DNA of 64,000 nt, from positions 345,839-409,838 of the forward strand of contig JANJXX010000001.1 in the NCBI GenBank assembly GCA_024720975.1, written 5' to 3'. A model generated the notes under the pieces. That model worked only from the letters and a program-made list of their open reading frames with translations, did no database searches and had not been told where the DNA came from. The first letter of the stretch is position 1; every line of letters starts with the position of its first letter. This DNA is from Thermoproteota archaeon (GTDB lineage Archaea; Asgardarchaeota; Njordarchaeia; Njordarchaeales; Panguiarchaeaceae). The position numbers were made by a program, and so were the translations under genes. This document shows, piece by piece, positions 17,026-52,332 of the stretch.

Positions 17026-17607
17026 ATGCTAGGCGTTGGAATCGTCGGCATGCCAGGAAGTGGTAAATCCGCATTAGGTGACGTTGCGAGAAAAAGAGGC
17101 GTCTTGGTTCTCAATATGGGCGACGTCGTCCGCGAGGAAATTATAAACAACGGCCTAGAACTTACATCAGAAAATTTATTGCATTACGCTGAAGAGCTTA
17201 GAAAGAAGCATGGGAGAGGTGCTGTAGCCGTTTTGGTAATAAATAGACTTAAGAAACTTCTCTTCGAAGAGGGAAAAGCAAAGGCTTTACCAAAAGTTGT
17301 TTTAATTGAGGGTCTCAGATCCCCAGAGGAAAAAAACGTTTTTGAAAAGTTCTTTGATAAGTTTTATGTAGTCGCTGTGCATGCTTCTCCCAAGACACGA
17401 TACGACCGCATATTGTCGAGAAATAGACCCGATGACTTCAAGACTATTCCAGAGCTCAAAGAGCGTGATTATAAAGAATTGAGCTTCGGTATAGGTGAAC
17501 TAATGGCTATGGCAGATTTTCACCTAGTGAACGATAACAAACCAGTACACGAATTCATAAAGGAATGCGAGGAACTTATTGAAAAGATACTGAATCTAGA
17601 TTGTTAG
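17026..17607 (+). CDS. COG0237 P-loop kinase (CoaE-like fold)
   Basis: GMPGSGKS, MGDVVRE, IEGLRSPEE, RD..EL..GIG. Confidence 0.85.
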   Translation: MLGVGIVGMPGSGKSALGDVARKRGVLVLNMGDVVREEIINNGLELTSENLLHYAEELRKKHGRGAVAVLVINRLKKLLFEEGKAKALPKVVLIEGLRSPEEKNVFEKFFDKFYVVAVHASPKTRYDRILSRNRPDDFKTIPELKERDYKELSFGIGELMAMADFHLVNDNKPVHEFIKECEELIEKILNLDC

Positions 17608-20354
17608 TTCCTAGTGAATTCCTCTAAAATCCGTTTCCTTATGATGATTAGTAGGTTATCTGATGGTATCTCTAGTTTTCCAAAGATCCTATCTTTTGCT
17701 TCTTTATATTCGGCGCGTAGTTGTTTAAGAACTTCTTTTATGGTATTTCTAAAAGCCTCGTCACCCTTAGCAATGAATATATTCTCTGCAAGCGTCGTGC
17801 TGACTAACAAAATGTTATCTGTTTTGCTCTCTAGTCTATTCACGATATTGAAGAGTGAGTTAAGATCTAGATCAATTCTTTCTAGCAGGAATTTCTTACC
17901 ATCTATACTGACCACTTTATCCGAGACTAGCTTTTCTATGTTGTCTGAAATATACTTCCAGAGTTTTTGGAGTTCATCTTTCTGCCTCTTCCACTCAGAA
18001 AAGAATCTTGATGAAGTTTCTGCAAGCTTCTCTGGTCGTACCTTAAAGACTTCACAAGCCTCGTAGAGATGCCTGTCGCTAGAAATTATATGATCAATTG
18101 CGTATTCACCAACCGTGAATTCTAGTCGAATGATTCCATCATGAATTTTTTTAGAACCTAGAATTTTTATGGGTCCTACGAGAATTGTTTGCGGTAAATG
18201 CGTTCCACCACACGCTTCGACGTCCCAACCATCAATGTTTACTATTCTCAATACAGCTGATGGCACTGCTCCTCCTTGATATATCTTAACGCCAAATTTA
18301 CGCTCTGCGTCAGTTCTATTCATAAATTCTATATAAACTGGTCTATTCTCTAAAACTACCTTATTTGCAAGCTTCTCGATTTCCTTTAATTCTTCAAAAC
18401 TCAGATTTTCATAGTGCGAAATATCCAAATGAGCCTTATCAACCTTTTTTTCTGCACCCATTTGCCATACGTGAGGCCCTAGTACTCTTTGAGCTGCACC
18501 ATTTATTATATGTGTTGCGGTATGGTGACGCATGAGCTGGAGTCTTCTATTCCAGTCGATAATACCCTTTACCTTTCCAGTGTTTTCATGAATCGCTTCA
18601 TTTAGTTCATGTATTATAACGTCTCCTACCTTGAAGACATTTACTACTCTGTATTCCTTACCGCCCGCTATAATTATACCAGAGTCTCCTTCTTGGCCAC
18701 CGCCTCTAGGATAGAAGGCTGTCATGTTCAACACAAGAAATCTATCCTTTGAAAATACAATTTCAGCCTCAAATTCCTTCAGGAACTGATCTTCATAGTA
18801 AAGCTTCCTTGTGTGTGGAAGATTATTTATTTCCTTTCCCAGGAGCTCAACAATCTCGCGCTCAATCGTTTTCCTGTCGGTGCTTTCTACGTCTGGTTTA
18901 TTGTACATTTCCTTAAGCCTATCATAGAAGTCGGATGAAATTTTCACGGTAATTCCTAAATCCAGTTTGTTGGATAAATACTCGACCTCTTCGGGGGGTA
19001 TCCCATAGTTTAAGTATAAGTCCCGTAGTATAGGAAAATCAATGATTTTTTTCTTGGTCTTTCTAGCTATATTCTTGAGCTCCCGAATAGCATTTTGTAT
19101 GGTTTCCAAGAACCTATCCTGTTCTAGATGCCAGATTTTGATGGCTATTTTTTCGATTCCCTTTATCCTGTGAAACGTTCTAGAGAAGTATTCCACGGAA
19201 CGTAAAATTAGCTCATCCCAAGCGATCTCTAGCTGATATTTTTCGGCCAATGAAATTGCTCGCCTTAGAATTGCTCGGAGATTAGCCGCACCCCCAATGT
19301 TAGCCGGTATGCCACCATCGGGTATTGCCATGATAACTGTCTTAACGTGATCTAAGATTGCATACATCGCCTCCAGTGGACCAAATATGCTTCTAAATTC
19401 ATCTTCTGAAATCCCAAGTTTATCAGCAAGAGCCTTTCGAGTTGAACTAAAAATCTCATCGCTTTCGGTTTTAACCATACCTACATAGCGTCCATAGAGG
19501 AGCATTAAATCCTTATCTACTGAAATTCCCAGGTCCTTTTTTAACCATATGAAAATAGGGCCGAATGTGGCTTCATATATAGTTGGAGTTCCTTGTGTAA
19601 ACCATGAGACCCTCTCAAGTCCCCAACCTACATCAAGAACTCTTATTGGTATTCGCTGAAGAGAACCATCAACTATCTTGTACTGCATAAATACTCCGTT
19701 GACTATTTCTAGGCCGTGTGAGAAGGTTTCTAGAGATGGGCCACAATTGCCTCCCCCCTTCCACCAATCCTCTTTATATGTAAGTTCTTCAGGAGGCACC
19801 CCCAGAACTTTTGTCATGAATTCAAAGTTCAATTCCAGATATCGATCTTTCCAGTATCCTCCTTTCCATTTGTCACTGATGAATGCATGCTGACCACCCA
19901 TCGTGAAACTCGATAGATGCCTGCCTGTTTTTCCAATGCGATCAATGTCACTAAATTCGCCTCCAAAGCGAATGCACGGTTGAGGGACGACAAGTGGATT
20001 TGCGGGAGGATCAACATAACCCTCAACAACCCAGGGTTGGAATATAGCTATGCTTGCTATCGTGAAGTATATATCCTCCCTCCACCGAGCTACAACCGGG
20101 TAGTAATCCAGAACTTCATGTCCCCGCTTCTTGAAAAAGTCTAACCAACGTGATATTGTATTATGTATGTCCCAGTGTTCCACTGGATCAAGTCTTCTTA
20201 CAAATCTGTACTCACCCTCACATTCAACATCGCCGCAAGTTTGTCTCTCTTCATTAAGAGTCCAAAAGAAACCGCCGCATTTCGGACATTGCTTCCTGAC
20301 AAAATTTTCGCGTCTGAAAAACTCGTTTTCATATTCCTTAGGATCTACTTGCAT
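17604..20354 (-). CDS. alaS: Alanyl-tRNA synthetase (archaeal type) with atypical tRNA-recognition domain
   Basis: N-terminal Zn motif, YPVVARWR, QPCIR, GGGNCGP, DVGWGLER; editing motifs HHTATH and ACGGTH. Confidence 0.97.
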   Translation of the reverse strand: MQVDPKEYENEFFRRENFVRKQCPKCGGFFWTLNEERQTCGDVECEGEYRFVRRLDPVEHWDIHNTISRWLDFFKKRGHEVLDYYPVVARWREDIYFTIASIAIFQPWVVEGYVDPPANPLVVPQPCIRFGGEFSDIDRIGKTGRHLSSFTMGGQHAFISDKWKGGYWKDRYLELNFEFMTKVLGVPPEELTYKEDWWKGGGNCGPSLETFSHGLEIVNGVFMQYKIVDGSLQRIPIRVLDVGWGLERVSWFTQGTPTIYEATFGPIFIWLKKDLGISVDKDLMLLYGRYVGMVKTESDEIFSSTRKALADKLGISEDEFRSIFGPLEAMYAILDHVKTVIMAIPDGGIPANIGGAANLRAILRRAISLAEKYQLEIAWDELILRSVEYFSRTFHRIKGIEKIAIKIWHLEQDRFLETIQNAIRELKNIARKTKKKIIDFPILRDLYLNYGIPPEEVEYLSNKLDLGITVKISSDFYDRLKEMYNKPDVESTDRKTIEREIVELLGKEINNLPHTRKLYYEDQFLKEFEAEIVFSKDRFLVLNMTAFYPRGGGQEGDSGIIIAGGKEYRVVNVFKVGDVIIHELNEAIHENTGKVKGIIDWNRRLQLMRHHTATHIINGAAQRVLGPHVWQMGAEKKVDKAHLDISHYENLSFEELKEIEKLANKVVLENRPVYIEFMNRTDAERKFGVKIYQGGAVPSAVLRIVNIDGWDVEACGGTHLPQTILVGPIKILGSKKIHDGIIRLEFTVGEYAIDHIISSDRHLYEACEVFKVRPEKLAETSSRFFSEWKRQKDELQKLWKYISDNIEKLVSDKVVSIDGKKFLLERIDLDLNSLFNIVNRLESKTDNILLVSTTLAENIFIAKGDEAFRNTIKEVLKQLRAEYKEAKDRIFGKLEIPSDNLLIIIRKRILEEFTRN

Positions 20355-44933: not shown

Positions 44934-47928
<2,995 letters not shown>

Positions 47929-48081: not shown

Positions 48082-48156
48082 GGAGGGGTAGTGTAGGGGT
48101 AGCACGCAGGATTTGCAATCCTGAGGCCGCGGGTTCAAATCCCGCCCCCTCCACCA
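48082..48156 (+). tRNA. tRNA-Ala(UGC) with A3-U70 pair and encoded CCA
   Basis: Acceptor GGAGGGG/CCCCTCC, D stem GTGT/GCAC, anticodon arm CAGGA-TT TGC AA-TCCTG, T arm GCGGG-TTCAAAT-CCCGC, A73, CCA. Confidence 0.92.
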
Positions 48157-48756: not shown

Positions 48757-50272
<1,516 letters not shown>

Positions 50273-52064: not shown

Positions 52065-52157
52065 GGGCCGGTAGCTCAGCTGGAAGAGCGTCAGGCTTTT
52101 AACCTGAAACTCCGAGGAGGAGCAGGATGGTCGCGGGTTCGAATCCCGCCCGGCCCA
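52065..52157 (+). tRNA. tRNA-Lys(UUU) with 20-nt intron at non-canonical position 44/45 (52109-52128)
   Basis: Acceptor GGGCCGG/CCGGCCC, anticodon arm TCAGG-CT TTT AA-CCTGA, T arm GCGGG-TTCGAAT-CCCGC; removing the intron restores an AGGTC variable loop and 73 nt. Confidence 0.9.
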
Positions 52158-52332
52158 CTTCTAAACTACATTTTGTCGACTCGATTACCTTGCTATCCTT
52201 TTAGTGCGAGTCTTTACAGCCACCTACGAGAATAGGACCTTTATCTTGCAATGGGTCAAACAACCTCTTAGCTTGTAAATACCAGAAAAACTAGCATAAC
52301 ATGATGTTTGCAACATTCAATCATACAGTTAC

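Follow-up and report, generated by a model that had tools for sequence, protein, structure and literature searches.

Alanine tRNAs without the G3:U70 pair in most species of the archaeal order Njordarchaeales

The alanyl-tRNA synthetase (AlaRS) does not read the anticodon, and the major identity element of its substrate is a pair in the acceptor stem, G3:U70. This pair is described as conserved in every known tRNA-Ala of bacteria, archaea, and the eukaryotic cytoplasm, the only exceptions being those of animal mitochondria (PMC9976931, a 2023 review; PMC6451123, 2019). A tRNA-Ala(UGC) gene with A3-U70 in place of G3:U70 lies in the genome of a free-living Asgard archaeon from hot springs, of the order Njordarchaeales, within a stretch of 64,000 nucleotides that was analysed as a whole and is referred to here as the window. 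The locus raises the question of whether such a gene can be a working alanine tRNA and, if so, by what feature its synthetase might tell it from other tRNAs.

The tRNA-Ala genes and the AlaRS of the window genome

The features around the tRNA gene are as follows.

47000-47926, plus strand: 3' part of the 23S rRNA gene, on the same strand as tRNA-Ala(UGC) and 155 nt upstream
48082-48156, plus strand: tRNA-Ala(UGC) gene with encoded CCA (direct reading, ARAGORN, Rfam tRNA model)
48084, plus strand: A3, which is G3 in nearly all alanine tRNAs (direct reading; unchanged in the contigs of three studies)
48150, plus strand: U70, the Watson-Crick partner of A3 (direct reading; same contigs)
48757-50272, minus strand: 16S rRNA gene, convergent with the 23S rRNA and tRNA-Ala(UGC) genes

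The 75-nt gene has the anticodon UGC, is called tRNA-Ala(tgc) by ARAGORN, and scores 74.9 bits against the Rfam tRNA model, for which the gathering score is 29. Its acceptor stem, GGAGGGG/CCCCTCC, sets A3 against U70. All 7/7 pairs of the stem are Watson-Crick, with no G:U at any position, and a G:U shifted to 2:71 or 5:68, as in mitochondrial-type systems, is likewise absent. The remaining alanine features are in place, namely the discriminator A73 at 48153, G1-C72, G2-C71, an NGC-anticodon cloverleaf, and CCA encoded at 48154-48156. The first-pass annotation of the window had reported A3-U70 in a stem free of G:U, and this is borne out by direct reading of the stem and by the cloverleaf that ARAGORN and Rfam recover. 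Between 47000 and 50272 of the window, the 23S (plus) and 16S (minus) rRNA genes converge, so that the tRNA gene is located 3' of the 23S and does not occupy a 16S-23S spacer position. Farther along, at 52065-52158, a 94-nt tRNA-Lys(UUU) gene has an apparent intron adjoining the anticodon loop.

ARAGORN finds exactly three Ala-anticodon tRNAs in the whole genome, GGC, UGC, and CGC, in one copy each. They have the stem GGAGGGG/CCCCTCC in common, and with it A3-U70, and all have A73 and good cloverleaves. The source assembly comprises 1.36 Mb in 29 contigs and is 81% complete; in it, no canonical G3:U70 tRNA-Ala, and hence no second, canonical tRNA-Ala(UGC), was found by ARAGORN with or without intron mode or by a tRNA-Ala covariance model, and the tRNA searches of this genome found no non-Ala tRNA with an NGC anticodon. 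The stretch with tRNA-Ala(UGC) is present in hot-spring metagenomes of several studies, with no RNA data set among the sources listed, and positions 48084 and 48150 are identical in covering contigs from three of them, one contig being that of a slightly diverged strain with nine differences elsewhere and none at these two sites. A sequencing or assembly error as the source of A3-U70 is rejected because the isoacceptors, the relatives described below, and the contigs of the three studies agree.

The meaning of the GCN codons was examined at conserved alanine columns, defined as those with Ala in at least 90% of 21 outgroup AlaRS sequences. The AlaRS of this genome has Ala in 14/15 such columns, coded by GCA, GCT, GCG, and GCC, on which ground a reassignment of GCN is rejected. 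GCA has therefore kept its meaning, as the first-pass annotation had supposed, and all four GCN codons stand at conserved alanine positions. The use of GCN, together with the finding of no other NGC tRNA, is indirect evidence for the charging of tRNA-Ala(UGC) with alanine.

The window also encodes the AlaRS, with the following features.

17604-20354, minus strand: AlaRS of 916 aa, the sole full-length AlaRS found (PF01411, tRNA_SAD, alignment with 3wqy)
19011-19013, minus strand: codon of Leu448, equivalent to A. fulgidus Asp450, the minor-groove reader of G3 (alignment with 3wqy)
19299-19301, minus strand: codon of Asn352, equivalent to A. fulgidus Asn359, the major-groove contact of U70, which is kept (alignment with 3wqy)
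20223-20225, minus strand: codon of Glu44 in the N-terminal Cys-rich segment, a candidate co-varying site (AlaRS comparison)

The enzyme scores 298.4 bits against PF01411 (cut-off 30.3), and its editing domain scores 53.2 bits against tRNA_SAD, with the HxxxH/CxxxH zinc motifs present as HHTATH and CGGTH. It aligns nearly full length with A. fulgidus AlaRS (3wqy; E 8e-183). A search of the genome for a second full-length AlaRS returned only an AlaX-like frame of 221 aa, and throughout the order there is a single full-length AlaRS per genome, with AlaX-like proteins as the remaining matches (for G008 and G011, see the survey below). The AlaRS gene and the nearest tRNA-Ala gene are 28 kb apart here; in family f3, the AlaRS gene lies about 0.2-1.2 kb from tRNA-Ala(CGC) (G012 C173, G009 C1, G013 C39, and G008 C114).

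An account of A. fulgidus AlaRS (PMC6055181) describes hydrogen bonds from the side chain and backbone of Asp450 to the 2-amino group of G3 in the minor groove, as well as a contact between Asn359 and O4 of U70. The main role of Asp450 in A. fulgidus is the exclusion of Watson-Crick pairs. The motif LYLNYGIP of the present enzyme stands against LYDSHGIP in A. fulgidus, so that Leu448 takes the place of Asp450. The pentapeptide Y-(D/E)-(S/T)-(H/Y)-G, a constant feature of cytoplasmic AlaRS that has diverged in the human mitochondrial, G3:U70-independent enzyme (PMC6451123), reads Y-L-N-Y-G here and has lost its acidic residue. The asparagine that contacts U70 is retained as Asn352 in the motif PANIGG. 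The 3wqy alignment, which equates Leu448 with Asp450 and Asn352 with Asn359, thus upholds the earlier report of leucine at the aspartate that reads G3.

Distribution of the 3:70 pair and of the AlaRS residue among Asgard archaea

The survey of the order covered 14 GTDB species genomes, coded f1-f4, for which a tRNA-Ala covariance model was built and its top matches were tabulated. The residue given is that at the A. fulgidus Asp450 position.

f1 (the genus of the window), G000-G004: A3-U70 in all, GGAGGGG/CCCCTCC; AlaRS Leu
f2, G005: A3-U70, GGACGGG/CCCGTCC; AlaRS Ile
f3, G009, G012, and G011: A3-U70; AlaRS Ile (AlaRS of G011 not found)
f3, G006, G008, and G010: A3-U70 in UGC, and also in GGC of G006 and G010 (no GGC gene found in G008); U3-A70 in CGC, GGTCGGG/CCCGACC; AlaRS Leu in G006 and Ile in G010, AlaRS of G008 a fragment without that region
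f3, G013: G3:U70 in all three isoacceptors; AlaRS Val
f4, G007: G3:U70 in all three isoacceptors; AlaRS Val

The 37 tRNA-Ala genes of the 14 genomes comprise 28 with A3-U70, three with U3-A70, and six with G3:U70, and a G-C or C-G pair at 3:70 occurs in 0/37. The six G3:U70 genes are confined to G013 and G007; in the other 12/14 species, whose genomes were assembled independently, no canonical copy was found. The departure seen in tRNA-Ala(UGC) of the window accordingly extends to the two other isoacceptors of that genome, GGC and CGC, which have the same stem, and to 31/37 genes of the order. The acidic residue at the Asp450 position is absent throughout the order, with Leu or Ile accompanying A-U or U-A and Val accompanying G:U, and the equivalent of Asn352 is conserved throughout. 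Many tRNA-Ala genes of the order have introns in the anticodon loop, D arm, or variable region (G001-G004, G006, and G010), and ARAGORN wrongly labels several of the intron-bearing genes as Gly or Ser.

In the AlaRS tree, the order is monophyletic with G007 at its base, and G013 falls inside f3 with moderate support only. The best tree, with two further Asgard genomes added (G144 and G145, described below), needs three changes for the A-U state, and its well-supported branches force two. Grouping the nine A-U enzymes of Njordarchaeales in one clade gives a p-AU of 0.072, and a single origin is not rejected. G013, a G:U species, is nested within A-U species on the best tree and also by its genus in GTDB. 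The co-occurrence of the 3:70 state with the AlaRS residue rests on two to three independent contrasts, too few for statistics. Co-occurrence across the clade is found in part: Leu or Ile goes with A-U and Val with G:U, but the G:U species lack the acidic residue too.

Outside the order, the Asp450 position is Glu in 17/21 outgroup Asgard AlaRS sequences (LYES.G). The exceptions are Arg in G015 and G026, Val in G017, and Thr in G032, and G3:U70 tRNA-Ala is kept in these three lineages without the acidic residue (confirmed in G015, G017, and G032, and not in G026 itself). The lineages of G017, G015/G026, and G032 may be 'permissive' intermediates. The first-pass annotation had gone further and matched the Asp-to-Leu change specifically to A3; this does not hold, as the acidic residue is also absent in the two G3:U70 species of the order, which have Val, and in the three Asgard lineages.

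When 400 Asgard genomes were scanned by pattern for tRNAs that combine an Ala anticodon with a base other than G at position 3, the Njordarchaeales and one further genome, G145 of family f25, were left once offset matches had been removed. Matches in family f12 were discarded as false positives: they are the 3' portions of canonical tRNA-Ala genes, preceded by a GG that does not pair. All three tRNA-Ala genes of archaeal type in G145 (CGC, UGC, and GGC) have GGACCGG/CCGGTCC and hence A3-U70, and the AlaRS motif of this genome is FYTNYG, with Thr at the acidic position. G144, from the sister genus of G145, has G3:U70 tRNA-Ala and the AlaRS motif LYDSHG. By these sequences, G145 is a second, independent case in which G:U and the acidic residue have both been lost. 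The tRNA-Ala(UGC) of G145 has an odd T-loop that starts with A (ATCGAAG). The assembly, listed with 6% contamination, also holds bacterial-type tRNAs, including a canonical GGGGCTG tRNA-Ala on contig C521, which are probably contamination. Residue 44 of AlaRS is Glu in 10/10 Njordarchaeales A-U enzymes and in G145, and in 0/24 G:U enzymes; this strikingly convergent site between the two A-U lineages is a candidate co-varying site.

The 3:70 pair as a mark of alanine tRNAs

In the genome of the window, 42/42 non-Ala tRNAs have G-C or C-G at 3:70, and A-U is confined to the three Ala tRNAs (an ARAGORN call with an 'intron' of 106 nt was set aside as spurious). The same is true of 28/28 non-Ala tRNAs fetched from relatives. 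Because all the non-Ala tRNAs examined have G-C or C-G at this position, 3:70 still marks the alanine tRNAs. In G005, tRNA-Val(CAC), with GGGCGGG/CCCGCCC-A, differs from tRNA-Ala, with GGACGGG/CCCGTCC-A, at 3:70 alone. In the genome of the window, G1-C72, G2-C71, and A73 occur also in many other tRNAs, among them those for Val, Lys, Ile, Met, Arg, and Pro. Judged by the stems compared, A-U or U-A at 3:70 is the sole acceptor-stem feature that distinguishes tRNA-Ala in these genomes. The phrase 'G:U-independent alanylation', used in the first-pass annotation, is apt insofar as G:U is missing from all isoacceptors across the lineage and the one AlaRS has intact catalytic and editing motifs. However, it does not amount to independence from 3:70, which alone distinguishes the tRNA-Ala stems. 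Alanine tRNAs may not be alone in having A-U at 3:70 in the family of G145, where A3-U70 is present in at least one other tRNA, the tRNA-Arg(CCU) of G144, which has G73; the uniqueness of the mark is shown for the Njordarchaeales only. Two further peculiarities of the window genome are that all of its tRNA-Ser have A73 and not the usual G73 (contigs C7, C11, C19, and C27) and that its tRNA-Pro(CGG) has A2-U71.

The A3-U70 and U3-A70 genes appear to be working alanine tRNAs that would be charged by the single archaeal-type AlaRS. As a whole, we regard it as fairly probable that most Njordarchaeales exchanged G3:U70 for A3-U70, or for U3-A70 in some CGC isoacceptors, that the enzyme changed first, and that 3:70 came to be read anew. 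The order of events and the mode of read-out proposed here are drawn from sequence patterns. In a first step, AlaRS would have lost the acidic minor-groove residue at the A. fulgidus Asp450 position, and in a second step, G3 would have become A3 in all isoacceptors. This enzyme-first order fits because G007, and possibly G013, combine a neutral residue with G:U. Position 3:70 probably remains an identity position under a new rule, by which a pair without a guanine 2-amino group in the minor groove (A-U or U-A) would be accepted. A bulky Leu or Ile at the old Asp site could accommodate such a minor groove but would collide with the amino group that G-C and C-G present there, and non-Ala tRNAs would be rejected in this way; the smaller Val occurs in the species with G:U. 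A pair can pass from G:U to Watson-Crick equally well by G3-to-A or by U70-to-C. Because G-C and C-G are absent from all 37 genes, A-U and U-A have been interchanged, and the stems are GC-rich, 3:70 appears to be constrained to a pair other than G-C or C-G; given the small number of evolutionary events, shared ancestry could account for part of this absence.

The loss of the acidic residue looks permissive and not sufficient because G:U is kept by G013, G007, the three Asgard lineages, and N. equitans (PMC11392972). Asp-to-Leu as a sufficient cause is rejected on the same evidence, as Asgard enzymes with Val, Arg, or Thr and that of N. equitans retain G:U (PMC11392972). Further changes in the enzyme were probably needed, for which residues 44 and 449 are candidates. 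A more far-reaching proposal is that of a second alanine 'operational code', in which the AlaRS of two independent Asgard lineages would have ceased to select the wobble shape of G:U and would select A-U or U-A pairs for their lack of a 2-amino group and the aliphatic residue would sterically exclude G-C and C-G. We consider it plausible but put it forward tentatively.

It is also conceivable, though in our judgement unlikely, that a relaxed AlaRS ignores 3:70 and finds alanine identity in A73, G1-C72, G2-C71, the elbow contacts of C-Ala, or other features. G3 would then have drifted to A3, where a Watson-Crick pair is stabler under hot conditions. The A. fulgidus variants N359A and D450A still charge wild-type tRNA, and substitutions of Asp450 reduce discrimination, in particular against G3:C70 (PMC6055181). 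The AlaRS-alpha of N. equitans alone charges minihelices regardless of 3:70 (PMC11392972), human mitochondrial AlaRS is indifferent to this pair (PMC6451123), and within the order itself the position varies among G:U, A-U, and U-A. However, G1-C72, G2-C71, and A73 are common to many non-Ala tRNAs here, and the valine and alanine stems of G005 would be alike to an enzyme that did not read 3:70. Moreover, a free 3:70 in a thermophile with GC-rich stems predicts changes of U70 to C and thus G-C pairs, none of which is observed, and the change from A-U to U-A retains a weak pair.

RNA editing is very improbable. Deamination of A3 to inosine would give an I3:U70 wobble without a 2-amino group, a purely logical fit to an enzyme whose Asp reading that group is gone; however, the U3-A70 of three species would require editing of the opposite strand, and we know of no archaeal enzyme that deaminates adenosine within an acceptor helix. 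Hardly any credence can be given to the suggestion that the A3-U70 genes are nonfunctional (pseudogenes, decoys, or artefacts, with canonical copies in the 19% of the genome that the assembly lacks) or that GCN is read otherwise: the genome is indeed incomplete and sporadic A3-U70 Ala-anticodon genes do occur in metagenomes, mostly in AT-rich tRNA arrays, but all three anticodons occur once each with A3-U70 and good cloverleaves, the same state recurs in the 12 species without a canonical copy, the contigs of the three studies agree, and the conserved AlaRS alanine columns are coded by GCN.

Known alanine systems, occurrence elsewhere, and significance

[quoted passage not shown] The equivalents of A. 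fulgidus Asn359, Tyr449, and Gly453 are retained, as are A73, G1-C72, G2-C71, and the NGC anticodon in the tRNA. The A-U species of Njordarchaeales differ from A. fulgidus in having A3-U70 or U3-A70 for G3:U70 in every isoacceptor, Leu or Ile for Asp450, and Asn for the Ser that follows it. In A. fulgidus itself, an A3-U70 variant is reported to be bound, with its CCA end misrouted, and left uncharged (cited in PMC11392972 and PMC6451123).

Mitochondria likewise have natural tRNA-Ala without G3:U70 (G5:U68 with G3-C70 in humans and G2:U71 in Drosophila) and a diverged pentapeptide (PMC6451123, PMC9976931). However, these systems are organellar, have few tRNAs to distinguish, and usually carry a G:U elsewhere in the stem, whereas the archaeon described here is free-living, has about 45 tRNAs, a stem without any G:U, and a pentapeptide that is only partly changed (YLNYG). 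The split AlaRS of N. equitans has an aliphatic residue at the Asp450 site, as in the order, namely the Ile of LYISKG in AlaRS-beta; its alpha part alone is G:U-independent on minihelices, but alpha and beta together are strongly G3:U70-specific on them (PMC11392972). In Njordarchaeales, by contrast, the tRNAs themselves lack G:U. In E. coli, selections in a tRNA-Ala knockout have given active variants without G:U (cited in the review PMC9976931), and alanine acceptance without G3:U70 is thus possible. These are laboratory mutants, often with 3:70 mismatches and with the enzyme unchanged, and are neither natural nor lineage-wide.

A metagenome-wide pattern scan returned at least 120 matches, of which 100 of the 120 listed are offset false positives. 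Among the matches listed, 20 have a fully paired A3-U70 stem with an Ala anticodon, and four of these are of Njordarchaeales type. The others listed are mostly from AT-rich tRNA arrays like those of organelles or phages (L178, L244, L249, L263, and L277), with L191, L269, L203, L256, L280, and L290 as singletons. The contigs that are not of Njordarchaeales come from soil, gut, and water. Outside Njordarchaeales and G145, therefore, A3-U70 genes with an Ala anticodon do occur in isolation, and L280 and L290, which look archaeal, could represent further lineages. A full-text search of the literature, incomplete in its coverage, turned up no description of tRNA-Ala without G3:U70 in Njordarchaeales or Asgard archaea.

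G3:U70 is a textbook tRNA identity element, and it has been given up here across most of a free-living archaeal order. The putative orthogonality of this AlaRS/tRNA pair may hold in one direction only, because G:U is in use in sister species whose enzyme is similar. If the operational-code proposal is true, the enzyme and its tRNA would be orthogonal to every canonical alanine system in at least one direction, and a near-universal identity element would be replaceable in a free-living cell without recoding. The pair may serve engineering, and AlaRS positions 448, 449, and 44 are concrete sites to probe. With intermediates in which the enzyme has changed but G:U persists, and derived species that use A-U or U-A, the Njordarchaeales offer a natural series on how an identity rule can change without wrecking translation.
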